DNA of 64,000 nucleotides from an uncultured Clostridium sp. (GTDB lineage: Bacteria > Bacillota > Clostridia > TANB77 > CAG-508), in contig CAMMLS010000002.1 in the NCBI GenBank assembly GCA_946497775.1, positions 50,653-114,652 of the forward strand, given 5' to 3'. Below are positions 820 to 27,896 of the stretch, one piece after another; positions within the stretch are counted from its first letter, which is position 1, and every line of letters begins with the position of its first letter. The notes beneath the pieces were generated by a model. It ran no database searches. It had not been told where the DNA came from and was given only the letters and a program-made list of their open reading frames with translations. The position numbers and the translations under genes were made by a program.

Positions 820-3030
820 TTAATATAATTTAGTATTTCTAAGCCTTAAAGCATTAAGTATTACAGTTATACTACTAAACATCATTGCAAGACTTGCAAT
901 CATAGGATTTATTGAAATTCCAAACCTAGCAAATAAGCCCATGGCTATTGGAATCATTAGGATGTTATAGAAAAATGCCCAAAATAGATTTTGTTTTATG
1001 TTTCTAACAGTTTTTTTACTTATTTTTATTAGATTTAAAATACTTACTAAATCGTTTTTAGTTAGTATTACATCTGATGAATCCATTGCTATATCTGTCC
1101 CACTATTTATACTTATACCAATATCGGCAGTAGCTAGTGCTGGGCTATCGTTTATACCATCTCCACACATCATTACATATTTGTTTTGGTTTTTTAAATC
1201 CTTTATAACCTGTGCTTTTTCAGATGGTAATACATTTGAAACAACTTGTGTTATACCTATTTCTTTTGCAATTTTTTCAGCGGTTTCTTTATTATCTCCT
1301 GTTAGCATAATTGTTTCTATTTTATTTCTATTTAAATCTTCAATAACATCTGCTAAATTTTCTCTTACAATATCATTTACTCCAATTATTGCAAGTATTT
1401 TATTTGTATTTGCTACATATACAATACTGTTTCCTTTTTTAGTAAGTTCTTCTTCGTCTTTGCTGTATACGTTTTTAATATTATATTTGTTTAAAATTTT
1501 AGAATTACCTAGTATAAATTTTTCATTATTTATTTTTCCTGTAATTCCATAGCCTGATATATTTTCAAATTCTTGAACTTCTAATTTTTCTAGGTTGTTT
1601 TCTTCTAAATAATTTTCAAAAGCTTTTCCTATTGGGTGTGTTGATTTAGCTTCTATACTTCCTACTAATTGTAATAATTTCTTTTCTTCTAGATTACTAT
1701 GATTTTTTATTTCTGCAATTTTTAATTTTCCATAAGTTAATGTACCTGTTTTATCAAATACTATTGTATCAACTTTTTGTGCATTTTCAAGTATTTCACT
1801 TTTTTTAACTAAAATTCCATTTTCTGCGCATAATCCTTCTGATACAACTATTGCAAGAGGAGTTGCTAAACCTAAGCTACATGGGCAAGCAACTACTAAT
1901 ATTGTAACAAATCTTATTAAGCTTTCAGAAAAATCATATCCCAATATTAGATAAATAATAAATGTTAAAATTGCAAGAATTATAACAGCTGGTACGAAAT
2001 ATCCTGATACAGTATCGGCAATTTTTGCTATTGGTGCTTTTGTATTACTTGCCTCTACTACTAATCTTACAATTTCAGATATTGTAGATTCTTTTCCAAT
2101 TCTTTCTGCCTTATATTCTATATATCCATCATAATTTATACTTCCAGCTATCACCTTATCTCCTATTGTTTTATTAGATGGCTTACTTTCTCCTGTTATA
2201 AATGACTCATCAAAATGTGCTGAACCTTTTAGTATTTCTCCATCAACTGCTACTTTTTCTCCTGGCTTGCAGATAACAATGTTTCCTTTATGAATTTCAT
2301 CTAGTGTTACTATTTTCTCTTTTCCATCTACTTTAATTATAGCTTTATTTGGAGTCATTTTTACTAATTTTTGAATTGCTTCTTTTGTTTTATCTTTACT
2401 TGCTCCATCTAAATATCTTCCTAATTTTATAAAGTATATAATAATTGCAGTAGATTCAAAGTATAAACTGTGTATATATTCTAAATTACCTCTTATAATC
2501 ATTATCATACTAAATACACTATATAAAAAACTACTTAATACACCAATTCCTACTAATGTATCCATATTAGGTGTTCTATGAATTAAATTTTTATAACCAT
2601 TTTTTAAAATATCAAATCCATAAATCATAAATATTATAGTAAATAAGAATAAACATATTGTATAATTTATTGGATTAATTGTAACATCTAGAAAATCAAA
2701 AATAGGAAGATTAATCATATGTCCCATAGATACATACATTAGTACAATTGCTAAAATTGTAAAAATTATAAATTTATTTTTTTCTTTTTTATTTTTGTTT
2801 TCTATATTTATTTCTTTAAACTCACCTAAGCTTTTAAAACCTGCTTGTTTTACAAATTCATCTAGTTTAGTTTTATCTAATATGTTTTCATCATAAATAA
2901 TTGTGGCATTTGCCATTACTAAATTGACATTTGCCTCAATTATTCCATTTTGTTTGTTTAAATATTTTTCTAATCCATTAGAGCAAGCAGAACAAGTCAT
3001 TCCATCTATTGATAAAATTATCTTTTTCAT
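820..3030 (-). CDS. copA: copper-translocating P-type ATPase (P1B-1)
   Basis: N-terminal HMA motif GMTCSACS, TM6 motif CPC (ACPCSLGLATP), DKTGTLT, GDGINDSPAL, TM8 motif MMFSS. Confidence 0.9.
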   Translation of the reverse strand: MKKIILSIDGMTCSACSNGLEKYLNKQNGIIEANVNLVMANATIIYDENILDKTKLDEFVKQAGFKSLGEFKEINIENKNKKEKNKFIIFTILAIVLMYVSMGHMINLPIFDFLDVTINPINYTICLFLFTIIFMIYGFDILKNGYKNLIHRTPNMDTLVGIGVLSSFLYSVFSMIMIIRGNLEYIHSLYFESTAIIIYFIKLGRYLDGASKDKTKEAIQKLVKMTPNKAIIKVDGKEKIVTLDEIHKGNIVICKPGEKVAVDGEILKGSAHFDESFITGESKPSNKTIGDKVIAGSINYDGYIEYKAERIGKESTISEIVRLVVEASNTKAPIAKIADTVSGYFVPAVIILAILTFIIYLILGYDFSESLIRFVTILVVACPCSLGLATPLAIVVSEGLCAENGILVKKSEILENAQKVDTIVFDKTGTLTYGKLKIAEIKNHSNLEEKKLLQLVGSIEAKSTHPIGKAFENYLEENNLEKLEVQEFENISGYGITGKINNEKFILGNSKILNKYNIKNVYSKDEEELTKKGNSIVYVANTNKILAIIGVNDIVRENLADVIEDLNRNKIETIMLTGDNKETAEKIAKEIGITQVVSNVLPSEKAQVIKDLKNQNKYVMMCGDGINDSPALATADIGISINSGTDIAMDSSDVILTKNDLVSILNLIKISKKTVRNIKQNLFWAFFYNILMIPIAMGLFARFGISINPMIASLAMMFSSITVILNALRLRNTKLY

Positions 3031-3031
3031 A

Positions 3032-3244
3032 TTACTCTCCTTGTATAACTTCAAATCCTAAATCATCTATTTTTTCTTCTATAACTTCTTTTTCAATTTC
3101 CTTATTAGAAAATACTATAACATCGCCTGTTTTATAGTTTGCCTCTACTTTTTCTATTCCATCTATTGTAGATAAAGCATTTTTTACTCTATTTTCGCAT
3201 CCTTCGCATACCATACCATTTACTTTTATTTTTATTTCTTTCAT
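3032..3244 (-). CDS. copZ: copper chaperone, HMA domain
   Basis: 70 aa with an MxCxxC metal-binding motif (GMVCEGCENRV). It lies immediately upstream of copA. Confidence 0.85.
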   Translation of the reverse strand: MKEIKIKVNGMVCEGCENRVKNALSTIDGIEKVEANYKTGDVIVFSNKEIEKEVIEEKIDDLGFEVIQGE

Positions 3245-3319
3245 TAAAAATCAGTCCTTCCTTTTTTATTTTATTTAATCACAAATAGTAATTAAATTAC
3301 AGACTTTTTACTATAAAAT

Positions 3320-5161
3320 TTATTTTTTTACATTTAAAGCTCTTAATGCATTTATAATTGCAATTATAGAAACACCTACATCTGCAAATACAGCTTGCCA
3401 CATAGTAGATAATCCTAATGCACTTAAAATTAGGACAAGTACTTTTATCGAAATTGCAAATACTATATTTTCTTTAACAATTCTCATTGTTTTCTTTGAT
3501 AATGAAATAGCATTTACTATTTTAGATGGTTCATCTGTCATAAGAACAACATCTGCTGCTTCTATTGCGGCATCTGAACCTAAGCCACCCATTGCTATGC
3601 CTATATCTGAAATGGCTAAAACTGGTGCATCATTTATTCCATCTCCTACAAATGCAAGTTTACCTTTTTGACTTTTTTCTTTTAATAAACTTTCTACTTT
3701 TTCTACTTTTCCATCTGGTAATAATTCTGTATAAACTTTATCTAATCCTAATTCTTTGCTAACTAATTCGCCAACTTCTTTTCTATCTCCTGTTAGCATA
3801 ATAGTTTGTTTTATGTTATTTTTCTTTAAATCTTTTATTGCCTTTTTTGAATCTTCTTTTATTTTATCTGCTATTAATATATATCCTGCGAATTTTCCAT
3901 CTATTGCAACATATAAAATAGTTCCTATATCATTGCATTTTGTAAAATCTATTTGTTTTTCGTTCATTAATTTTTCGTTTCCTACTAAAACTTCTTGATT
4001 TCCAATTGTTGCAATAACTCCACGTCCAGATAATTCTTCTGTTTTTATAATTTGTTTTTCATCAATTTCATTATTGTAGGCTTTTTTAACAGATAATGAA
4101 ATTGGATGATTTGAATAATTTTCAGCATGTGCTGTAATTTTTAATAATTCTTCTTTGCTTATATCTATTGCATTTACTTTTTGTACTTCAAATACTCCTT
4201 CTGTTAATGTTCCGGTTTTATCAAATACTATTATTTCTGTGTTAGCTAATTGTTCTAAATAGTTACTTCCCTTTATTAGTATACCCATTTTAGATGCTCC
4301 ACCTATTCCTCCAAAAAAGCTAAGTGGTATTGAAATAACTAGTGCACAAGGGCAAGATACTACTAAGAATGATAATGCTCTATATATCCATTCTGAAAAT
4401 AAAGCTCCTTCTATTACAAGTGGAGGAACAATTGCAAGAATTACTGCAATTATTACCACTATTGGTGTATAGTATGAAGCAAATTTTGTAATAAAGTTTT
4501 CTGATTTTGCTTTTTTACTACTTGCATTTTCAACTAAATCTAATATTTTACTTACTGTTGACTGTCCATATTCTTTTGTAACTTTTATTTTTATTACTCC
4601 ATTTATATTTATACTTCCACTTAATACCTCATCACCTTCTTGTATTTCTCGTGGCAAAGATTCACCTGTTAATGCTTTGGTATCTAAACTTGAACTTCCT
4701 TCTACTACATATCCGTCTAGTGGAATTTTTTCTCCTGGTTTAACTACTATTATTTCTCCAATTTTTACATCATCCGGATCTACCTTTTCAATTGTTCCAT
4801 TTCTTTGTACATTTGCAAAATCTGGTCTTATATCCATTAGGCTTGAAATTGATTTTCTAGATTTATCTACTGCAAAGCTTTGGAATAGCTCACCTATTTG
4901 ATAAAATAACATAACAGCAACTGCTTCTGGAAATTCTCCAATTGCAAAAGCGCCAAGTGTTGCAACCGTCATTAAGAAATTTTCGTCGAATACTTTGCCT
5001 CTTATAATATTTCTAAATGCCTTTCTTACAATTTCAAAGCCAACTATAATATAAGATATAATATATATACTATTATTTATCCATTCATTATTAAAATTTA
5101 TTGTAATAGCAACAATGAATAATATAAGTGCTATTATAATCTTAATACCTTTTTTCTTCAT
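3320..5161 (-). CDS. cadA: Cd/Zn/Co-type heavy-metal P-type ATPase (P1B-2) lacking an N-terminal HMA domain
   Basis: CPC motif (SCPCALVISIP), DKTGTLT, GDGINDAP, a conserved Asp in the last TM (FADVG), and a start directly in TM helices. Confidence 0.85.
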   Translation of the reverse strand: MKKKGIKIIIALILFIVAITINFNNEWINNSIYIISYIIVGFEIVRKAFRNIIRGKVFDENFLMTVATLGAFAIGEFPEAVAVMLFYQIGELFQSFAVDKSRKSISSLMDIRPDFANVQRNGTIEKVDPDDVKIGEIIVVKPGEKIPLDGYVVEGSSSLDTKALTGESLPREIQEGDEVLSGSININGVIKIKVTKEYGQSTVSKILDLVENASSKKAKSENFITKFASYYTPIVVIIAVILAIVPPLVIEGALFSEWIYRALSFLVVSCPCALVISIPLSFFGGIGGASKMGILIKGSNYLEQLANTEIIVFDKTGTLTEGVFEVQKVNAIDISKEELLKITAHAENYSNHPISLSVKKAYNNEIDEKQIIKTEELSGRGVIATIGNQEVLVGNEKLMNEKQIDFTKCNDIGTILYVAIDGKFAGYILIADKIKEDSKKAIKDLKKNNIKQTIMLTGDRKEVGELVSKELGLDKVYTELLPDGKVEKVESLLKEKSQKGKLAFVGDGINDAPVLAISDIGIAMGGLGSDAAIEAADVVLMTDEPSKIVNAISLSKKTMRIVKENIVFAISIKVLVLILSALGLSTMWQAVFADVGVSIIAIINALRALNVKK

Positions 5162-5410: not shown

Positions 5411-5773
5411 TTATTTTTTATGTTCAATATGTTCCATACCAATTTCAAAAACTTCTTTAACATGTTCATCATCTAACATGTAAAAAACCTCTTTTCCTTC
5501 TTTTCTACATTTAACAATTCCACTTCTTCTCAAAGTTCCTAATTGATGTGAAATAGATGATTTGCTCATTCCTAAAACATTCGCAATATCACATACGCAC
5601 ATTTCATTTTGATCAAGTGCAAATAAAATTCTTGCTCTTGTTGTATCTCCTATTATTTTAAAAAACTCTGCAAGCTTTATAAATGTATCCCAGTCGGGCA
5701 TTTTTTTGCTTGTATTTTCAACAACATCCTTGTGAATTATGTTGCAGTCACATATAAATTCATTTTTTGCCAT
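5411..5773 (-). CDS. cadC: ArsR/SmtB-family metalloregulator (CadC-like)
   Basis: N-terminal CDC motif, an HTH segment (MCVCDIANVLGMSKSSISHQL) and metal-sensing Cys pairs. It is the first gene of the metal operon. Confidence 0.85.
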   Translation of the reverse strand: MAKNEFICDCNIIHKDVVENTSKKMPDWDTFIKLAEFFKIIGDTTRARILFALDQNEMCVCDIANVLGMSKSSISHQLGTLRRSGIVKCRKEGKEVFYMLDDEHVKEVFEIGMEHIEHKK

Positions 5774-7834: not shown

Positions 7835-8029
7835 TTATTTATGTAGTTGCTTATCAACCCAGTTCTTATACAGAACTGCTGTCAAGGCAACGTTTAATGT
7901 TAAAGATAACATTAAGGATAATATTAAAAATAGTATCGCTTTAACCATAAACATCACCACCCCTCCTACGAAGAATCGTAAAAATTGGTGGCAAAACCAC
8001 ATCTGCTTATCATCATTTCCTATGGTCAT
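7835..8029 (-). CDS. possible small membrane protein (64 aa)
   Basis: ORF with one TM helix, ending just before the bidirectional terminator. Weak support. Confidence 0.25.
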   Translation of the reverse strand: MTIGNDDKQMWFCHQFLRFFVGGVVMFMVKAILFLILSLMLSLTLNVALTAVLYKNWVDKQLHK

Positions 8030-19700: not shown

Positions 19701-21291
19701 ATGAAAAACATAAAAGGATATGTAAGTTTTGTACTTCATGCCCATCTTCCATTTGTGTATCATCCAGAAAGCGAAGATTACCTAGAAGAACAATGGCTTT
19801 TTGAAGCAATTTCTGAAACTTACATACCATTATTATTAAATTTTAAAAAATTAGAAGAGGAGCATGTTGATTTTAGAATAACAATGTCACTTACTCCTCC
19901 CCTTCTTTCTATGCTTGATAATGAGCTTTTACAAAAAAGATATATCAAGTATTTAAAAACACATATAGAACTATGTGAAAAAGAAGTTGTAAGAACAGCA
20001 TATGATGAAAGATTAAATAAGCTTTCACATTACTATTTAGAAAGATATACAAACGATTTACATGTATTTAAAGATGTATATAACTGTAATTTAATAAATG
20101 GGTTTAAACATTTTCAAGACATTGGTGTACTTGAAATAATAACATGTGGTGCAACACATGGATACTTTCCTATTTTATATGTTAATGAAAACACAATACG
20201 TGCTCAAATAGCTGTTGGTGTGCAAACATATGAGAAATATTTTGGAAGACGTCCTCGAGGAATTTGGCTTCCTGAATGTGGTTATGTACCACAAGCGGAC
20301 AAGTATTTACGTGAATTTGGAATAGAATACATATTAACAGAATCACATGGAATTCTATATGCAGACCCTACCCCACTATATGGCACATTTGCTCCAATAG
20401 TATCACCTGGCGGAATTGTTGCATTTGGAAGAGACATAGAATCTTCTAAACAAGTATGGAGTTCTATAATTGGATACCCTGGTGATTTTAATTACAGAGA
20501 ATATTATAGAGACATTGGCTTTGAAGCAGATTATGATTATATAAAGCCATATATAGCTTCAAATGGTGTTCGTGTACATACAGGTATAAAATATTATCGT
20601 ATAACTTCTAAAAGCGATTTTAAAGATTATTATAACCCAAGATGGGCAATGGATACAGCAGAAAGACAAGCTCGGTCATTTCTTAGATTCAAGAGTTGCA
20701 CAAATAAATTATCTATCTGAACATATGCATGTTCCCCCACTTGTTGTATGTCCATACGATGCTGAACTATACGGACACTGGTGGTATGAAGGACCTTATT
20801 GGTTATACATATTATTTAAAAAGATTTATTATGATGAATGTAATTTTAAACTAATAACCCCTGGCGACTATATAGACATGTTCCCAGAAATACAAGTAGC
20901 ATCTCCATGTATTTCAAGCTGGGGTAGAAATGGATATAGTGAAGTTTGGTTAAATGGAGAAAACGACTATGCTCACAAACACTTGCACGTAGCCGGAGAC
21001 AGAATGGTAGAACTTGCACACCTATTCCCTAACGAAAAAGATGAGCTAAAAAGAAAAGCACTTAACCAATGTGCCCGCGAATTGCTACTTGCTCAAAGCA
21101 GTGACTGGCTATTTATAATAACAAACGGAACCATGGTAGATTATGCAAAACGTAGAATAAAAGATCATATAGGTAGATTTACTAAACTATATGAACAAAT
21201 AAAAAATGATAAACTAGACGAAAATTATTTAAGCATGATAATGGAAAAAGATAAGATTTTTCCAGATATTGATTATATGATATACTATTAA
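19701..21291 (+). CDS. GH57-family 1,4-alpha-glucan branching enzyme, split by a -1 frameshift near 20675-20685 (poly-T)
   Basis: ORF1 carries HAHLPFVYHPE...; ORF2 starts MHVPPLVVCPYDAELYGHWWYEG. The alternative frame reads continuously as ...HFLDSRVAQINYLSEHMHVPP. Confidence 0.8.
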
Positions 21292-21325
21292 AAGTTCTAT
21301 CTATATTTAGATAGAACTTTTTTCT
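21290..21325. terminator. bidirectional rho-independent terminator
   Basis: Stem AGTTCTATCTA/TAGATAGAACT followed by TTTTTT. Confidence 0.55.
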
Positions 21326-21336
21326 TAAATCTAATT

Positions 21337-21831
21337 TTATAAAATATCATCTAATAGCATTTGTGAATCACCTATGTAGAAGTTTCTATTTCCATTTAAA
21401 TTTTTACATTTTATTATTCTAAACGTATCATACTTATATATTAGTGATCCTCCATCTTGATACATATCTTTATAAGCAATTCCATTGCTTACATCTTCTT
21501 CTACCTTTTCTATTATTTTATCAATTGTTATTCTATTACTTCTTAATGCATCCTCAAAAGAATATGTTTCTTCTCCAATAACTATACTTACATCTCCATT
21601 ATATGTATATATATCATAGTCATATTGTTCCATTTCACTTCTATCTATTATTTTATTTAATTGCTTATCTCCTCTTTTAGTAAATTTAATCTCAAAACTT
21701 ATATCTTTACTTGTGTTAACTATATTATTTTTCTCGTTATTTGTTGTATTATTATTTAAATAATACGCAAGACCTACTGTTATTACTAAAACTATACAAA
21801 TAAGTGCTATTATTAAATATTTTTTGTTCAA
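21337..21831 (-). CDS. secreted/membrane-anchored hypothetical protein (probable TTG start)
   Basis: 164 aa with a strong RBS (GGAAGGGGG) and a 0A-box promoter module upstream. Confidence 0.5.
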   Translation of the reverse strand: MNKKYLIIALICIVLVITVGLAYYLNNNTTNNEKNNIVNTSKDISFEIKFTKRGDKQLNKIIDRSEMEQYDYDIYTYNGDVSIVIGEETYSFEDALRSNRITIDKIIEKVEEDVSNGIAYKDMYQDGGSLIYKYDTFRIIKCKNLNGNRNFYIGDSQMLLDDIL

Positions 21832-21859
21832 ATTTTTCCCCCTTCCTTCTTAGTTTTTC

Positions 21860-21960
21860 TTTGACATTCTATTGTTATTTTACTTCATCTAATTATAATA
21901 TTCGACATGTGAAAGTTTTTTCCTTATTTAATTATCACCAAAATATTTCTATTTACTATG
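21860..21960 (-). promoter_or_regulatory. promoter module copy 1 with a perfect Spo0A 0A box (TGTCGAA on the coding strand, 21901-21907) followed by TATAAT/TAAAAT
   Basis: The coding-strand read is ...cacaTGTCGAAtattataattagatgaagtaaaat.... Confidence 0.55.
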
Positions 21961-22060
21961 TTAATACTACGTCGTGAACAAGTTCTAGGATTTTGTTTTT
22001 TATTTCATCAAAACTTAAAACTTTTTGCAATATATTTATATTTATTTTTATGTCAATTTA

Positions 22061-22384
22061 TTAAACAAATGCTGAAATTATATTATTAATTGCAGATACT
22101 ATAAGTATAATATAATCTTTTATTTGTTCTACTATTCCCTTTTCTTCTTTTTCTTTTGGCATTACATATACACTTGCATCTATTCCTTGTGATTCGGTAT
22201 TTTCATTTGAAGTATTTGACTCTCCTGGCTCCCTTATTTCTTCTACTCTTTCTTGGCTAGAAGTTAAGGCAATTTCTCCCCCTGCAAGTTTTTCTTCTCC
22301 TGGTTTGAAAAATACCATTGCCACGAGTACTACAGCTACAATTACTAAAACTACTGCTATCCCTATTAGTACTTTTTTCTTCAT
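22061..22384 (-). CDS. truncated paralog (N-terminal signal anchor only) of the 267/270-aa secreted-protein family
   Basis: MKKKVLIGIAVVLVIVAVVLVAMVFFKPGEEKLAGGEIALTSS closely matches MQKKILVGVVIVAIVVIGLTAMAVLKTGGEEKLVGGATAPVSS of 23680..24483. Confidence 0.5.
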   Translation of the reverse strand: MKKKVLIGIAVVLVIVAVVLVAMVFFKPGEEKLAGGEIALTSSQERVEEIREPGESNTSNENTESQGIDASVYVMPKEKEEKGIVEQIKDYIILIVSAINNIISAFV

Positions 22385-22500
22385 GTATTTTCCCCTCCTT
22401 ATTTTATTCTTCTTACGTCTTTTAACTTCATCTAGTTATATTATTCGACATAGGATAACTTTTCCCTTATTGTTTTAGCAATTTTAATTCTTTATAGCAT
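22385..22500 (-). promoter_or_regulatory. promoter module copy 2 with a 0A box at 22445-22451
   Basis: Coding strand reads TGTCGAAtaatataactagatgaagttaaaaga, nearly identical to copy 3. Confidence 0.55.
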
Positions 22501-22505
22501 GATAG

Positions 22506-23246
22506 TTATATAAATATACTTGTTTCTTCTAATTTATATGATATCATTTGTATAATGTTTTTTATACTTGGCTTTTTTAATTCTTGAAATTTAAAATATC
22601 CTTTTAATCTCTCTGATTCACAATTATAATACATATTTTCTGTTGCCCTTGCAATATTACATTTTACATTATGTACAGTCGTGTTATTAATCAAAGCAAT
22701 ATAGGGGTATATTTCTTCTTTTAAATTATTAATCTGTTCTATTTTATTTTCACTTATATATTTTATTGTTTCTATTAAATATAAAGTTCCTTTGTGTGAA
22801 ATATTATATCCTAAATATAATATTTCTTCTTTAATCTTTCTTTCTAAATTCTCATCTAAGCGAATTTGTTCTTTTTCATGAACTAATTCTAAAATTTTAT
22901 TTGTAATTTCTTCAAAAGTAAGTACTTTCTGTAATACGGCATATATCATTTCATTTTTTCTTAATTTGTTTATATATTCAACTTCTCCACTAATTACTAT
23001 ACAAGATTTTTTATACTTTTCTCTTTTTTCTTCATTAATCATGTCTAATACTTCAATTCCATTATATTTAGGAATTTTTAAATCCAATAAAAATACATCA
23101 ATATCTTCTCTATTATTTAATAGTTCAATGGCTTCTTTCCCATTTATAGTAATATTAGTAACTTTTATTTCATTACCTTTATTAATATAATCCATTAGCT
23201 TTTTAGCATAGAATATATTATCTTCTATAATTAATACATTAATCAT
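22506..23246 (-). CDS. response regulator with a Spo0A-type C-terminal DNA-binding domain (Spo0A paralog; short linker)
   Basis: REC domain (IIEDN...FLLDLKIP). The C-terminal domain aligns along its length to the Spo0A_C domain (HIKGYLYL/SHKGTLYL; LYPDIAKKFNTT/IYPYIALINNTT; KPTNSEFIAMVADKL/KPSIKNIIQMISYKL). Recognition helix is TVHNVKCNIARA versus TASRVERAIRHA. Confidence 0.75.
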   Translation of the reverse strand: MINVLIIEDNIFYAKKLMDYINKGNEIKVTNITINGKEAIELLNNREDIDVFLLDLKIPKYNGIEVLDMINEEKREKYKKSCIVISGEVEYINKLRKNEMIYAVLQKVLTFEEITNKILELVHEKEQIRLDENLERKIKEEILYLGYNISHKGTLYLIETIKYISENKIEQINNLKEEIYPYIALINNTTVHNVKCNIARATENMYYNCESERLKGYFKFQELKKPSIKNIIQMISYKLEETSIFI

Positions 23247-23337
23247 TTCTTCCCCTTCTAGTAAATATTAATATATAACTTCTTTATTTATTATACCATA
23301 TATGGTTTGTTTCTTCAATTATTATCGATTAATAGCA

Positions 23338-23372
23338 AAAAAGACAGCAATTAAAAATGCTGTCTTTTTGCT
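23338..23372. terminator. bidirectional rho-independent terminator
   Basis: AAAAAGACAGCA-loop-TGCTGTCTTTTT. Confidence 0.6.
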
Positions 23373-23462
23373 ATTAATCCATTTTCTAATTATCATTTTT
23401 TATATTCACTTTGCAATATTGAATCTAATGTTTCCAATTCACCATTTTCATTATTTTTCACC

Positions 23463-23693
23463 TTAATTGTATTCATTAGATTGCAATGATTTTGTATTTG
23501 TATTTAGTATAGCTTGATTTGTGTTTTCAATATTTGTTTCAATTTCCCTTAATCCATATTTCAAATAAGCAATTGAGTATACTCCATAATCTTCATTGTA
23601 TTTTAGATACATCAAATATGTTTTTCCATCTTGTATTTCTATATCATCAGACATTGTTTCCTTTATATATATTGTTTTTTTAATTTGAAGCAT
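23463..23693 (-). pseudogene. C-terminal fragment of a secreted-protein family paralog
   Basis: 76 aa ...GKTYLMYLKYNEDYGVYSIAYLKYGLREIETN... is homologous to the C-terminal parts of the 267- and 270-aa paralogs. It overlaps the stop of the upstream gene. Confidence 0.4.
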
Positions 23694-24483
23694 TTGACTC
23701 TTCCTCTGCTACTTTTTTTATTTGTGATAATATTGAGCTAAGTGTTGTAACACTACCAGTTCTATTATCTTTTACTTTTATTTTAGAATTATCTTTTAAA
23801 TTTAGTCCCTTAGATGTATCTATTTCTCTTAGTCCATATTTCATAAACTCTATCTCATATCTTTCAAAATCTGTGTTATATTGTAGTAACATATAATAAG
23901 TTTTTCCTTGTTCTATTAAAATATCATCAATATCAAGTTTTAATATATATTCGTCGTCTTGTGGTATCTCTTTTAAAAATTGAATTTCATTAGAGAATGT
24001 AGATGTCCCTTTTTTATACTCCGAAAAAGGAAGGTATCCTCCTGATTTTATAAATGGTATAGCTTCTTCGTCTATTTCTCCCTTTAATACTTTTTCTACT
24101 TTTATTGTACCCACAGTTTTTACAGATGAATAGTTTCCAGTAGTTGGATTATAATTTGTTCCACCTTCAATATTTTGAACTGTTCCTATAATTATAAAAT
24201 CTGTCGCATTTCCTATTTCACCAGTATCTGCTATGTCAAAAATATAACTTACTTCTATGGGTGCTCGATTTTGTATTTTTTGAATTTCTTCTAGTAATCC
24301 TTCTGGTAATGGGAATATTTTTTCTTGTGACCTTATTTTTGCGATTTGTTCTGGGCTAGAAACTGGTGCAGTTGCTCCTCCCACGAGTTTTTCTTCTCCT
24401 CCTGTTTTTAAAACTGCCATTGCTGTTAGTCCTATAACCACAATCGCTACAATTACTACTCCTACTAGTATTTTTTTCTGCAT
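23680..24483 (-). CDS. secreted/membrane-anchored protein, paralog family member B
   Basis: 267 aa with an N-terminal anchor and conserved IIGTVQNIEGGTNYNPTTGNY...YGLREI. Confidence 0.6.
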   Translation of the reverse strand: MQKKILVGVVIVAIVVIGLTAMAVLKTGGEEKLVGGATAPVSSPEQIAKIRSQEKIFPLPEGLLEEIQKIQNRAPIEVSYIFDIADTGEIGNATDFIIIGTVQNIEGGTNYNPTTGNYSSVKTVGTIKVEKVLKGEIDEEAIPFIKSGGYLPFSEYKKGTSTFSNEIQFLKEIPQDDEYILKLDIDDILIEQGKTYYMLLQYNTDFERYEIEFMKYGLREIDTSKGLNLKDNSKIKVKDNRTGSVTTLSSILSQIKKVAEEESNASN

Positions 24484-24600
24484 ATTTTTCCCTCCTTATT
24501 CTATTTTATGTCTTTTAACTTCATCTATTTATATTATTCGACAAGTAATATTTTTTCCCTTATTTTTAGTTGTTTCAATTCCCCAAAAATATTTCATTTT
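24484..24600 (-). promoter_or_regulatory. promoter module copy 3 with a 0A box at 24537-24543
   Basis: Coding strand reads TGTCGAAtaatataaatagatgaagttaaaaga. Confidence 0.55.
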
Positions 24601-24720
24601 GTCCAATGCCTCACATAATGAAAATGAACCCTCCTTATTAACACTTTTTTGTCTAATAATTTGGGTTCACTTCATAATATATCAGTGCTTTTCAGGATGT
24701 TAATTAATTTTCTTTTAATT

Positions 24721-25533
24721 TTAGTTAGTGTTTTTTATAACAGATTTAGGAATAATTGAATCTAACGTTTCATATTCTCCATTGGTATTGTTTTTTACTC
24801 TAATAGTTGTATATGCCTCATTGTTCAATATTTTTAAGTTTGCATTAAGTAAATTTTGATTTGTACTTGTTAAACTTTCTTCAACTTCTCTTAGCCCATA
24901 CTGTAAATATTCAATTGAATACCTATCATAATAATCCGAATATGCTATATACATTAAATAAGTTTTATTCTCTTCAATTTCAATATCACCAGCCATTGTT
25001 TCTTTTACATATTTATTTTCTTTATCTTCTTGTGATAAATTATTTAGCCCCATTTTTTCTAGATGCGCTTGTGGTTGTGATTTTATATATTCTCCTAATG
25101 GTACTACACCACCTAATCTAATAAATGATATTTTATCTTCATTTAGATTTCCTTTTATTACCTTATTTACTTTTATTGTCCCAACCGTTCTAGCCATTAC
25201 ATAATTTTCTGTTGTAGGATTGTAATTTGTCATTCCTTCAATACTTTCAACAGTCCCAATAATTATCCACTCGGCATCATTTGCGATAGTTGTATTATCT
25301 GACATATCTGTCAAAAAACTTCCACTACTTTCTAAATTCATATAAATCTGTTCTTCATCTAAATTTTCATTTATTGGTATTATTCTCTCCTTTTCACGTA
25401 TATTACTATTTTTAGCAACTTGTGGCTGTTCTGTGTTTTCTTTATTATTGTTAATAAGAATACATGTAATCGTAATCACAAATATTACTACAATAATTGA
25501 AAATATTATTAATAACTTTTTTTTCATAATCAT
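24721..25533 (-). CDS. secreted/membrane-anchored protein, paralog family member A
   Basis: 270 aa, IIIGTVESIEGMTNYNPTTENY...YGLREV. Starts 10 bp after the metalloprotease gene, so probably co-transcribed with it. Confidence 0.6.
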   Translation of the reverse strand: MIMKKKLLIIFSIIVVIFVITITCILINNNKENTEQPQVAKNSNIREKERIIPINENLDEEQIYMNLESSGSFLTDMSDNTTIANDAEWIIIGTVESIEGMTNYNPTTENYVMARTVGTIKVNKVIKGNLNEDKISFIRLGGVVPLGEYIKSQPQAHLEKMGLNNLSQEDKENKYVKETMAGDIEIEENKTYLMYIAYSDYYDRYSIEYLQYGLREVEESLTSTNQNLLNANLKILNNEAYTTIRVKNNTNGEYETLDSIIPKSVIKNTN

Positions 25534-25542
25534 CCACTCCTT

Positions 25543-26658
25543 TTAATATTTATATATTAATGCTTGTCTATCAATTGTTTGTGGAGTAGTAGGTACTCCT
25601 GACCTATTTATAGTTGGATACATAAGGCTACTTTTACTTATATGATGTTGTAAACCGAATGCATGTCCTATTTCATGCGCAATGGTTCCATATCTTTGAT
25701 CCGTATTCACCTGATTAGTAACCAAATATGTATCTCTATTTATAGAAACTTTTGCAAAATTCCAGCCAGTATATTCTGGATAAAGAATATTATCATGACT
25801 TGGTGTATGACATGTGGTTGCTGCTAGCCAATTATTTCCAAGTTCAGTAATGTTATCAAAATAGTCATTACCCACCTCATAAAAATCTACTGCTGTTGAA
25901 GCATTAGTTGAAGCTTGACTTAATATTATTGTTGGATTCCATCTAGATGCTCCAGTAGATATATAGCTAGAATATTGCGAAGCTGTTGAATCTACATAGT
26001 ATGTTTGATATCCGATTCCCTTAGTCATTCTATAAGGATATGCAGGGGTAGAATCTTCCAGTGCTTCAAAACTCCATAATTGATTGGCTGAACCTGTCCA
26101 TGTTGATATAAATACATTTCCATTCGAGGTAGAAGAAGTTCCTGATCCTGAACCATTTCCAGTACCATATACTGTCAGAGCTAAGTTCGGATTAGATTTT
26201 AATCGTATAGCAAATGAATCTCTACTTATTAATTGAATTATAAAGAATTGACAGTCATCATCTCCTGTTCCCCATATATCTACATTATTCCCTGATACTA
26301 TTGAACCGCTAGCACTTCCTCCTGTTCTTAGTACATCTAATACTCTGTTGCCTCCTTTACTACTACACATTGGATAAATTCTATATGCATCTTCATTTCC
26401 AGACCTATTATAATATACTACTCTAAATCTTTGTTCTTGACTTCCATCTTTAGTCCATTGTATAACATTCGTTCCATTTGCATCAGTTCCTAAATTTACA
26501 TTTAGATACTTGCCACTTGCATTGTTTTTTATATTATATATCATCCCATTTGTGATTAGTAATGTTTCAGCTGCAAAAATAGACCTATTGCCTAATAACA
26601 TTAATGTAAATACTAAAAAAGTTAAAATAAATAAAATTTTTGTTGTAATTTTTTTCAT
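25543..26658 (-). CDS. secreted ricin-B-lectin domain plus matrixin-like (metzincin) zinc metalloprotease
   Basis: Signal peptide, N-terminal beta-trefoil-like region (QxW-like repeats), HEIGHAFGLQHH motif and an SLMYP Met-turn. Confidence 0.75.
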   Translation of the reverse strand: MKKITTKILFILTFLVFTLMLLGNRSIFAAETLLITNGMIYNIKNNASGKYLNVNLGTDANGTNVIQWTKDGSQEQRFRVVYYNRSGNEDAYRIYPMCSSKGGNRVLDVLRTGGSASGSIVSGNNVDIWGTGDDDCQFFIIQLISRDSFAIRLKSNPNLALTVYGTGNGSGSGTSSTSNGNVFISTWTGSANQLWSFEALEDSTPAYPYRMTKGIGYQTYYVDSTASQYSSYISTGASRWNPTIILSQASTNASTAVDFYEVGNDYFDNITELGNNWLAATTCHTPSHDNILYPEYTGWNFAKVSINRDTYLVTNQVNTDQRYGTIAHEIGHAFGLQHHISKSSLMYPTINRSGVPTTPQTIDRQALIYKY

Positions 26659-26859
26659 ATTTACCTCCTTTTTACCATACCTTTGATTTCCAATTACATT
26701 GATTGTATGGCTTTAAAAAAATAATGTTTTATAATATAAATATCCTCCTTTCCAATTTATTTTATGTCTCTCCCTATTAATCCTGCATAGATTATATATC
26801 AAAAATACTTTTTTTCTCAAAAAGATACAAAAAGATACTTTTTGTATGATGTATCTATT

Positions 26860-26960
26860 TCTCTTAACCCATATATTTATATTGTTCGACAAAAAATATT
26901 TTTTCCATTATTTTTAATTGTTTCAATTTTGCGGACATATTTCATTTTGATTTGTGTTTG
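26860..26960 (-). promoter_or_regulatory. promoter module copy 4 with a 0A box at 26885-26891 (about 230 bp upstream of the metalloprotease gene)
   Basis: Coding strand reads tTGTCGAAcaatataaatatatggg. The upstream part of the module is conserved with copies 1-3. Confidence 0.45.
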
Positions 26961-27032
26961 AATAATATAATGTATATCTAAGTGTGTTTTGGCAGATAAT
27001 AGTTGTAGATTTTTGGAAGGAGTTTTTAAGCC

Positions 27033-27896
27033 GTGATTAAGTCTTTTTGTATTAAAACAAATAATAAGAATATTTTAAATTATCTTGTAGGCAGTTTTAA
27101 GCGTAACACTCCTAGCAATTTTTATCTGTCTAAGCATAAGTTTAAAATTTATAATAATATTATTATTCATTATACTGGAAATGATGTTACTTTGTTTTAT
27201 AACTATATTTCTAGTCTTATTCAGCATGCTATTTTGAAGTTTTACGAAGATAAAATTTTGTATAATTTTATTAATTATGATTATTTTTATTTTACAGATA
27301 CCGAAAAAGATACAATTTTTGATATTTCAAAGCAATTACTAAAAGAAAATGAATCTATATATAATTCTAGATTAAATATATTGTATCATTTATGCCATGC
27401 TTATATTAAAAGCAATAAAAGCATGATATTAGATGGGTTCGTTAATTTTAGAATTAGGGAATATTCTATTATTTTAAACGAACTTGTTGTAGAGGCAGCT
27501 AGTACTTTTACTATAAAAAAGGAATACGATGAATTTATTGAACTATTAAAATCATATGTGAATACTGCTCCTCCAACAGCTAAAGAGGTACATTTAGTTT
27601 ATTTTAGTGATGATTCTTTATTGTTAGATGAAAATAAAAATATTATTAAAATAGATAGAAATATTTCAAGTGCTAAGTATTTATCCGATATAACTTTTTC
27701 TACTAATGATTATTGCTTAAATACTTTGCTAAATATTATTCCAAAAAGAATTTATATTCATTTATTAAATGATAATAAAAATAATGAATTTTTAGATACT
27801 CTATGTGCTATTTTCGGAAAAAGAATAATCATCTGCCTTGACTGCAATATTTGCAATTTTTACAAGGCAAATGATGTTTTCAAAAAGAATAATTAA
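27033..27896 (+). CDS. hypothetical protein (287 aa; C-terminal CxxC...C cluster)
   Basis: ORF diverging from the metalloprotease operon; no confident family assignment. Confidence 0.45.
   Translation: MIKSFCIKTNNKNILNYLVGSFKRNTPSNFYLSKHKFKIYNNIIIHYTGNDVTLFYNYISSLIQHAILKFYEDKILYNFINYDYFYFTDTEKDTIFDISKQLLKENESIYNSRLNILYHLCHAYIKSNKSMILDGFVNFRIREYSIILNELVVEAASTFTIKKEYDEFIELLKSYVNTAPPTAKEVHLVYFSDDSLLLDENKNIIKIDRNISSAKYLSDITFSTNDYCLNTLLNIIPKRIYIHLLNDNKNNEFLDTLCAIFGKRIIICLDCNICNFYKANDVFKKNN

Follow-up and report, generated by a model that had tools for sequence, protein, structure and literature searches.

What does a gut Clostridium do with a metalloprotease that carries a lectin, and why is the gene for such an enzyme followed so closely by one for a membrane-anchored protein? 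The question is raised by a gene on the minus strand (25543..26658) of a 64,000-nucleotide stretch of DNA from an uncultured Clostridium sp. (assembly GCA_946497775.1, contig CAMMLS010000002.1, positions 50,653 to 114,652), here called the window, which has a composition of ~27% G+C. From the letters alone, the original prediction had called its product a secreted matrixin-like metzincin with an N-terminal ricin-B lectin domain. The open reading frame (ORF) does encode a Sec-secreted two-domain enzyme, an R-type (ricin-B) beta-trefoil lectin followed by a minimal matrixin-like metzincin, and by itself this domain call is ordinary. What makes the locus interesting is the conserved module that the protease forms with a downstream partner of predicted NTR/TIMP-like fold (TIMP, tissue inhibitor of metalloproteinases), the lectin-bearing variant of that module, and its link to a paralog of Spo0A; the fold, the module, and the regulator had all been missed. 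We see about an even chance that the pair in the window is a lectin-bearing variant of a bacterial metzincin and TIMP-like partner module with a mechanism like that of Mtz-Tim from Listeria monocytogenes.

A secreted enzyme with a lectin and a minimal metzincin domain

The protease gene and the parts of its product are as follows (MMP, matrix metalloproteinase).

25543..26658, minus strand: secreted lectin-metzincin gene, 371 residues (ORF; Pfam RicinB_lectin_2 and Peptidase_M10; AlphaFold2 pLDDT 88.8)
26572..26658, minus strand: signal peptide, residues 1-29, predicted cleavage IFA/AE (n-region KK..K, hydrophobic core, AxA-like site)
26059..26550, minus strand: ricin-B-type beta-trefoil lectin, residues 37-200 (Pfam, Foldseek, invariant columns)
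25546..26046, minus strand: matrixin-like metzincin catalytic domain, residues 205-371 (profile matches to karilysin and MMPs; homology to stand-alone metzincins of 190-197 residues)
25645..25677, minus strand: zinc-binding motif HEIGHAFGLQH, residues 328-338 (H328, E329, G331, H332, and L336 invariant in 29 members)
25615..25629, minus strand: Met-turn SLMYP, residues 344-348 (M346 invariant in the 29 members; aligns with ALMYP of MMPs and karilysin)

Translation starts at an ATG with the strong Shine-Dalgarno (SD) sequence AAAGGAGG 7 nt 5' of it, and a protein identical to the window protease is present on nine metagenome or NCBI contigs. The N-terminus MKKITTKILFILTFLVFTLMLLGNRSIFA, followed by AE after the cleavage point, reads as a standard Sec signal peptide from its sequence only, as the original prediction had it. 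An AlphaFold2 model built on an alignment of 29 family members (A1) was confident (pLDDT 88.8, pTM 0.85) and placed an N-terminal helix at residues 2-23, a low-confidence linker at 24-29, a beta-trefoil at 39-199, and the strand and helix order typical of metzincins at 218-370. When the protease sequence was searched directly against the PDB, it matched ThreeFoil (3e-7), MMP-20, MMP-1, and karilysin.

Both predicted domains matched Pfam above cutoff. For the lectin, RicinB_lectin_2 was found at E=1.7e-16 (61 bits against a cutoff of 25.6), and Foldseek placed the model beside ThreeFoil (E=1.8e-11, TMt 0.86), with botulinum HA33, CNL, and the Marasmius oreades agglutinin (MOA) also among the PDB matches. 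The lectin precedes the protease domain as foreseen, although at ~165 residues it is larger than the ~150 first estimated. Its three (QxW)-type repeats end in EQRF, CQFF, and NQLW. Q137, Q193, and W195 are invariant in the family alignment, as are NVDIW and a Gly/Ser-rich gamma loop, YGTGNGSGSGTSSTSNGN. The canonical sugar-binding Asp (LDV, D108) and aromatic residue (W129) appear to be kept only in the beta repeat. The lectin is the best-conserved part of the protein: between loci, it keeps 49-82% identity, where the catalytic domain keeps 25-84%.

The same lectin module, invariant gamma loop included, also occurs alone or fused to Peptidase_M23, Amidase_6, or cysteine-protease-like domains, and may thus be a common module by which these bacteria target their secreted hydrolases. 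Six further proteins (P0023, P0028, P0034, P0039, P0044, and P0051) carry the trefoil with the invariant loop YGTGNGSGxGxxxTSxGN, either alone (~204 residues) or joined to an M23 peptidase, an Amidase_6 domain, or a His/Cys domain that is caspase- or clostripain-like. Judged from their sequences, these combinations are probably a modular secreted-hydrolase repertoire of gut Clostridia. Chimerolectin proteases such as MOA likewise join an N-terminal ricin-B beta-trefoil to a protease domain; however, MOA is fungal, its protease domain is a papain-like cysteine protease, and it has no partner gene.

The matrixin-like call for the catalytic domain held as well. Residues 328-339 read HEIGHAFGLQHH, and HEIGHAFGLQH satisfies the extended metzincin motif HEXXHXXGXXH/D. 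The third zinc ligand, H338 in the window, is His in most of the 29 aligned members and Glu or Asp in three, a variation that recalls snapalysin. Peptidase_M10 (PF00413) matched at E=2.3e-7 (31.3 bits against a cutoff of 24), the match being restricted to residues 325-353, which cover the zinc helix and the Met-turn. A profile of the catalytic domain alone (A4) extended the similarity: its PDB matches were exclusively matrixins (5e-8 to 1e-6), including karilysin at 5e-8, with entry 2xs3 spanning positions 16-158 of 163, and MMP-1, -14, -12, and -3 at ~1e-7 to 1e-6, with alignments reaching the C-terminal D...Y helix. In the model, helix A covers residues 224-238, the active-site helix B 319-333, and helix C 361-370; this last helix ends in KY, and the C-terminal Y371 is invariant across the alignment.

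The zinc helix, the xLMYP-type Met-turn, and the C-terminal D...Y helix are shared with matrixins (MEROPS M10A: vertebrate MMPs and karilysin of Tannerella forsythia), and the order of secondary structure predicted by the model agrees with theirs. The enzyme is nevertheless minimal. Sequence, family alignment, and model contain no cysteine-switch pro-peptide (PRCGxPD) or pro-domain, and the lectin directly follows the signal peptide. The family alignment has no conserved Ser after the third His (the position after H338 holds H, S, Y, F, K, M, or R) and no invariant His or Asp between helices A and B, hence none conserved for the structural Zn and Ca sites of the matrixin S-loop. Catalytic domains of the family are only 137-170 residues long, and the proteases split into long and short catalytic subtypes.

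A conserved pair with a membrane-anchored partner

Directly behind the protease gene lies the first of several related genes.

24721..25527, minus strand: partner 1, membrane-anchored protein of NTR/TIMP-like predicted fold, 268 residues from the second ATG, 270 from the first (AlphaFold2, Foldseek, adjacency)
23680..24483, minus strand: partner 2, a paralog of 267 residues with its own copy of a repeated promoter element (41% identity to partner 1, E=3e-48; profile match E=3.5e-82)
23463..23693, minus strand: remnant of a third partner, 76 residues, C-terminal half only (54% identity to partner 1 residues 171-241, E=7e-23)

The protease stop codon is separated from partner 1 by a 15-nt gap that holds the partner's own SD sequence and no terminator. 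This arrangement, together with an adjacency kept in all loci examined, is the basis for concluding that the two genes are co-transcribed and translationally coupled, and it bears out the expectation that the protease heads an operon with a member of a paralog family (270 against 267 residues for the two partners). Where the window has the 76-residue remnant, the locus of an ortholog with 80% protease identity (L007) has a full gene of 280 residues.

The pair is conserved well beyond the window. A word-indexed search found 57 members of the protease family, nearly all metagenomic and with no name beyond "RICIN domain-containing"; among GTDB species representatives, five metagenome-assembled genomes carry the protease, labelled uncultured Clostridia or Oscillospiraceae. 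The sources are gut metagenomes from mouse and termite (the latter inferred from an isolate name). We examined the loci L001-L004 (identical to the window), L007 (80%), L005 (62%), L010 (55%), and L012 (42%), as well as L013, L018, L019, L020, and L021 (37-41% protease identity). At every one, a membrane-anchored protein of ~240-273 residues is encoded by a gene that begins within 10-20 nt of the end of the protease gene, so that adjacency is maintained from 84% to 37% protease identity among the distinct loci. Long-type proteases pair with one partner family (A2; E=1e-75 to 1e-107) and short-type proteases with another (A5), and the two partner families are probably homologous by profile comparison (hhalign 89%, E=2.4e-6).

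Compared with the protease family, that of the partners is far larger. An exhaustive profile search returned 737 cluster representatives at E<=1e-3 (400 at E<=1e-10), with clusters defined at 50% identity. Several of the wider members that we inspected are lipoproteins with a lipobox. Where distant lipoprotein partners were sampled, all three lie directly behind a metzincin of 190-197 residues; two of these enzymes have a Pfam M10 match and the third has HEMGHAFGLNH and a match to the catalytic profile. One of the sampled pairs is located on a small Rep3/TraD plasmid. The stand-alone enzymes are full-length homologs of the window catalytic domain (E=1e-14 to 1e-27) and share its ending ...D..AI..KY; consequently, the window protein can be seen as such a stand-alone enzyme of the module that gained a lectin at its N-terminus. 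On a Bacillus cereus plasmid, a 196-residue protein annotated as a matrixin family metalloprotease (E=8.5e-19 to the catalytic profile) is followed by a 252-residue protein whose family compares with A2 at 77% hhalign probability.

The fold of the partner was approached by modelling. Partner 1 was predicted with a pLDDT of 87.3 as a transmembrane helix (residues 3-29), a poorly ordered linker to about residue 60, and a beta-rich domain. About 40 of its top 50 Foldseek matches in the PDB have the NTR/TIMP fold, a variant of the OB fold, led by agrin NtA (E=2.4e-3, TMt 0.49) and TIMP-2 (4.3e-3, from complexes with proMMP-2 and MMP-13) and including TIMP-1, the C345C domains of complement C3/C4/C5, and the NTR domains of PCOLCE and meteorin. 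The scores are marginal, but the list is homogeneous, and NTR proteins outrank the many generic OB folds in the PDB. TIMPs themselves naturally pair with MMP-type metzincins. By eye, the motif layout of the partner (hydrophobic strand-G-x-V ... K-V-x-K-G ... I-x-F ... GG ... YL) also resembles that of TIMP/NTR modules. The partner differs from these in having no detectable sequence similarity, ~100 extra C-terminal residues, and a membrane tether where TIMPs are freely secreted. Its ectodomain contains no Cys, and hence neither the N-terminal Cys1 nor disulfides. No Pfam domain matched the family above threshold (NtA at 0.054 and NTR at 0.1 were sub-threshold, and TIMP was not matched), its sequence profile had no matches in the PDB, and the BFVD viral library gave the model weak generic OB folds and no NTR-type match. 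Two family members of 400 residues (P0113 and P0181) have a tandem-duplicated NTR-like domain.

The closest published counterpart is Mtz-Tim of L. monocytogenes (LMRG_00713/00714), described by Boichis et al. in 2021 (PMC8235301). Mtz is a secreted metzincin and Tim a lipoprotein encoded directly 3' of it without a promoter and predicted by Phyre2 to be TIMP-like; Mtz cuts Tim ~50 residues from its N-terminus and frees the TIMP-like fragment (PMC8235301). Co-expression of the two altered cell morphology and sensitized cells to phage lysins, penicillin, and mutanolysin (PMC8235301). The pair is under a cI/Cro-like switch, similar pairs occur beside mobile-element genes in Bacillus, Brevibacillus, Lysinibacillus, and Clostridium, and Boichis et al. 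state that they came upon no other report of TIMP-like proteins in bacteria (PMC8235301).

The window pair matches this description in several respects: a secreted metzincin with HEXXHXXGXXH and a Met-turn, a promoterless next gene for a membrane-anchored protein of TIMP-like predicted fold, an N-terminal tether of roughly 50 residues in both partners, an association of both with mobile elements in relatives, and, among the wider members of the partner family, lipoproteins, as Tim is. It differs in its extra N-terminal ricin-B lectin (~165 residues), in an uncleaved transmembrane helix that replaces the lipobox as the partner's anchor, and in its neighbor, a Spo0A-family response regulator rather than the cI/Cro-like XRE pair of Listeria. 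The fused lectin, the transmembrane anchor, and the frequent linkage to a Spo0A-family regulator are new relative to Listeria. The window also has partner paralogs and remnants, and we found no prophage context or phage relatives for it.

Signs of mobility are found in the surroundings of the module. In L013, it lies among conjugative-element genes (ArdC-N, CHC2 primase, PcfJ, and RadC), and by eye the setting is similar in L010 and L018. The chromosomal sites differ: the module lies between ytxC and GH57 in the window and between secF and ytxC in L005, L019 has it behind polC, and L021 has it behind topA. These varied sites and conjugative-element-like surroundings are consistent with mobility. 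A phage origin was considered and set aside, as no relatives were found in the phage collections INPHARED and IMG/VR.

Some observations concern fusions and plasmid relatives. Protease fusions that seemed to be present among long partner-family matches were actually tandem duplications or an unrelated flagellin fusion, and the top 150 matches contain no protease-partner fusion. A plasmid matrixin of C. beijerinckii has, by eye, a partner-like domain at its C-terminus, a possible Rosetta-stone fusion; the A2 and A5 hidden Markov models (HMMs) fail to match this extension. DUF4362 proteins, including one with choline-binding repeats, flank the plasmid matrixin genes of C. beijerinckii DSM 6423 (plasmid II, 3935-6082; L022) and B. 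cereus A22 (2293-4297; L023).

The Spo0A-family regulator and the repeated promoter element

Downstream of the partners are an orphan response regulator and two further genes, and a repeated element recurs in front of four genes of the locus.

22506..23246, minus strand: orphan response regulator, REC and Spo0A_C domains (Pfam Response_reg 8.8e-12, Spo0A_C 2.8e-9)
22061..22384, minus strand: ORF of 107 residues, internally deleted paralog of the partner 2 type (DNA repeat D4, 74% identity to 24331-24400; weak HMM match, 0.018)
21337..21831, minus strand: membrane-anchored protein of 164 residues (ORF; Pfam PepSY sub-threshold, E=0.055)
26854..26915, minus strand: repeat copy 5' of the protease gene, ATGG-17-GAAC, the most degenerate; TGTCGAA at 26885-26891 (repeat families D2/D3, alignment A3)
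24506..24567, minus strand: repeat copy 5' of partner 2, AGGG-17-GAAT, TGTCGAA at -60 from the ATG (repeats, alignment, composite motif)
22413..22474, minus strand: repeat copy 5' of the 107-residue ORF (repeats, alignment, composite motif)
21870..21931, minus strand: repeat copy 5' of the 164-residue ORF, AGGA-17-GAAT, the best SigH-like copy (repeats, alignment, composite motif)
26791..26820, minus strand: sigma-A-like promoter candidate TTGAGA-18-TATAAT, ~133 nt 5' of the protease ATG (11/12 consensus matches)

The regulator scored 71.5 against the Spo0A equivalog TIGR02875, far below the cutoff of 200, and is therefore a Spo0A paralog and not a true Spo0A. Its REC active site is intact by sequence. 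The recognition helix reads NTTVHNVKCNIARA and differs from that of Bacillus subtilis Spo0A, which we take to be NTTASRVERAIRHA, at positions that presumably contact DNA, so the regulator may bind another sequence. It is linked to the module in seven of ten distinct loci, namely the window and the following.

L007, 14605-15348: module-linked regulator
L012, 9507-10241, minus strand: module-linked regulator
L013, 7157-7876: module-linked regulator
L018, 9460-9816 and 12395 to the end: module-linked regulators
L019, 5034-5759: module-linked regulator
L020, 4719-5438: module-linked regulator

This recurrence beside the module in unrelated genomic contexts looks like that of a dedicated Spo0A paralog travelling with it. 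In L005 (10001-11596), a 5'-truncated Spo0A-like regulator is fused in frame to a protease without a signal peptide (P0005). The fusion looks like a pseudogene that arose by a deletion, which also removed the signal peptide, and L005 is accordingly a decayed locus; it also shows the ancestral order to be regulator, protease, partner.

A 0A-box promoter had been proposed for the protease gene. The heptamer TGTCGAA is present there. The window holds five copies of it (1.8 expected), four of them on the minus strand within 21.9-26.9 kb. All four lie in a direct repeat of 62-80 nt with the core AATAAGG(G)AAAA-N11-TGTCGAAT-AATATAAAT-AGATGAAGT, and there are four occurrences of the composite motif GGAAAA-N8-13-GTCGAA where 0.01 would be expected. 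The gene that each copy precedes encodes a secreted or membrane protein. Three of them, before partner 2, the 107-residue remnant, and the 164-residue gene, are 60-76 nt 5' of the ATG. The boxes of validated Spo0A targets in C. difficile lie at similar distances, from -67 to -82 (PMC3485338). The same three copies match the SigH promoter pattern AGG(A/G)-17 nt-GAAT (PMC12456013). The AGG(A/G)-17-GAAT core overlaps TGTCGAA, which makes the element ambiguous: it could represent a SigH promoter or a 0A box, or combine the two.

For the protease itself, the part of the proposal that made this a 0A-box promoter fared less well. Its heptamer is 227 nt from the ATG and sits in an element that fits SigH equally, and the copy is conserved only in the 80% ortholog (L007), not in more distant loci. 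The heptamer lies ~65 nt 5' of the best sigma-A-like -35. The sigma-A-like region is conserved in L007, where it is duplicated before the third partner gene, but a scan for sigma-A sites found overall no more of them than in shuffled sequence. A candidate operator near the -35, GTRWCTTTTT, was rejected as not significant (four occurrences against 2.85 expected). Rfam had no match in 21000-27200, and alignments of the leaders gave no convincing conserved structure.

In most protease leaders, a strong SD-like AAGGAGG occurs ~100-130 nt before the real start. In the distant loci L010 (~7925-7945) and L020 (~5595-5615), the same tiny ORF, MIRPP-stop, comes after it, with no Rfam match; from its sequence, this could be an Arg-Pro-Pro stalling leader peptide.

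Proposed mechanism, alternatives, and wider meaning

If the pair works like Mtz-Tim, the partner, held outside the membrane by its linker of ~30-60 residues, would bind the catalytic domain as it emerges. It would act as cognate inhibitor or guardian and would also be a substrate: by analogy with Listeria, the protease may cut the tether and free the NTR-like domain, the conserved linker motif (I/V)IP(I/L) at residues 51-54 being a candidate cleavage site. Once free, the enzyme would be steered by its lectin to a surface that bears glycans. The partner paralogs, and probably the protease as well, may be expressed under control of the stationary-phase or sporulation type through the four-times-repeated element (0A-box or SigH-like) and the adjacent Spo0A-family regulator. 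Host mucin, competitor envelopes, and the producer's own wall are all possible targets. The Listeria precedent, in which the pair acts on the bacterial envelope, and the lectin's fusions to cell-wall hydrolases of the M23 and amidase types may favor a bacterial envelope glycopolymer, though only slightly. On these grounds, the host-glycoprotein or mucin interaction suggested in the original prediction drew no support.

Several observations weigh against such an arrangement. Its likeness to Mtz-Tim is one of architecture, judged against the published description, and the bridge to Listeria through the Bacillus pair reaches only 77% hhalign probability, partly from hydrophobic N-termini. The fold assignment of the partner comes from one structural method with marginal scores; with neither an N-terminal Cys nor disulfides in the partner, the zinc-chelation mechanism of TIMPs cannot be assumed for it. 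In a mirror-tree comparison, partner divergence tracked the lectin (rho 0.63) as well as the catalytic domain (0.60), which is no specific signal of co-evolution. Searches of INPHARED by tblastn with the protease, the B. cereus matrixin, or its partner found no relatives, and scans of IMG/VR gave generic zinc-helix matches only and no partner. Lastly, the repeat copy of the protease gene is the most degenerate of the four, with its TGTCGAA 227-233 nt 5' of the ATG.

The partner could instead be an immunity protein for an offensive secreted protease whose lectin targets host mucin or glycoproteins, or the envelope glycopolymers of competitors. It would then be purely a self-protection inhibitor, as AprI and Inh are for serralysins, and not a physiological substrate. 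The serralysin operons (AprA-AprI and PrtC-Inh; MEROPS M10B and I38) do place a bacterial metzincin beside a small cognate inhibitor that shields the producer, but the analogy is functional: those inhibitors are eight-stranded barrels of the Gram-negative periplasm, directed against type-I-secreted proteases. Among the closest lectin structures are botulinum HA33 hemagglutinins, whose ligands are host galactose and sialic acid, and the lectin's fusions to Peptidase_M23, Amidase_6, and cysteine-protease-like domains form a secreted hydrolase repertoire that would suit offense. For each protease, the window and L007 also have two to three paralogous partners along with remnants, a pattern of expansion and decay typical of immunity genes, and the sources are gut metagenomes (mouse and termite). 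However, the sole experimental precedent is one of partner cleavage and effects on the producer's own wall (PMC8235301), the substrate is purely conjectural, and toxin-type delivery has no support. Lectin-free members of the family have the partner too, and the pair thus works without glycan targeting. We regard this explanation as possible but somewhat doubtful.

It is unlikely, in our estimation, that the partner is a membrane docking subunit or a dedicated foldase or maturation factor on the model of lipase-specific foldases, which would hold a protease with no pro-peptide at the cell surface or activate it there. Protein binding is a general role of NTR/OB modules (agrin NtA, C345C, PCOLCE), the protease has no pro-domain to assist its folding, and the C. 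beijerinckii fusion would suit an ancillary domain; but that fusion was seen by eye only and is not matched by the A2 and A5 HMMs, zero fusions occur in the top 150 partner-family matches, paralog expansion and decay would be unusual for a foldase, and the Listeria data describe cleavage and release rather than retention. We give still less credence to a chance resemblance, by which the TIMP/NTR likeness would be that of a generic OB-like barrel and the downstream proteins would be unrelated envelope proteins sharing an operon. The Foldseek E-values near threshold and the absence of sequence-level support leave some room for it. Set against this are the ~40 NTR-type proteins in the top 50 PDB matches despite the abundance of generic OB folds there, a strict adjacency that extends across very divergent pairs and to stand-alone metzincins, and the same TIMP-like call made with Phyre2 by an independent group for the Listeria partner (PMC8235301).

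The Mtz-Tim-like reading of the window pair can be extended to the partner family as a whole. MMP-TIMP-type pairing of protease and inhibitor underlies tissue remodelling in animals, and the partnership is usually seen as a metazoan invention. We suggest, tentatively and with more doubt than belief, that a large and essentially unannotated bacterial family, made up of membrane proteins and lipoproteins with the NTR/TIMP fold (737 clusters or more at 50% identity), is dedicated to partnering MMP-like metzincins, and that one lineage of gut Clostridia added a glycan-targeting lectin to the protease and brought the module under a Spo0A-paralog regulator that recognizes a dedicated repeated element. 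If this is true, the MMP-TIMP partnership has a widespread, mobile prokaryotic counterpart, and possibly its evolutionary source. A structurally similar pairing, common and mobile in Firmicutes, has been noted in one paper only (PMC8235301); the window locus extends the module to uncultured gut Clostridia, with a partner family that is large. Its features make it tractable: the lectin may reveal the target surface, the partner paralogs offer a handle on specificity, and the Spo0A-family regulator comes with a sharply defined repeat. Given that the Listeria pair sensitizes cells to lysins and beta-lactams, such modules in gut anaerobes could matter for envelope remodelling, sporulation-linked lysis, interbacterial and host interactions, and antibiotic potentiation.

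Other genes of the neighborhood complete the picture. The 107-residue ORF retains the N-terminal anchor and linker of a partner, and by eye its tail is like the C-terminal extensions of homologs of 312-315 residues (P0089, P0090, and P0092). The gene for the 164-residue protein sits beneath the best SigH-like copy of the repeat; PepSY, its sub-threshold match, is a peptidase-inhibitory propeptide domain. Further away in the window, a GH57/BE_C gene of the glycogen-branching type is split into ORFs of 339 and 188 residues (19701-20720 and 20725-21291, plus strand). In L005 (13794-15384), the gene is split at another point, into 412 and 137 residues; a conserved frameshift, a site of recoding, or a genuine separation could account for the interruption.

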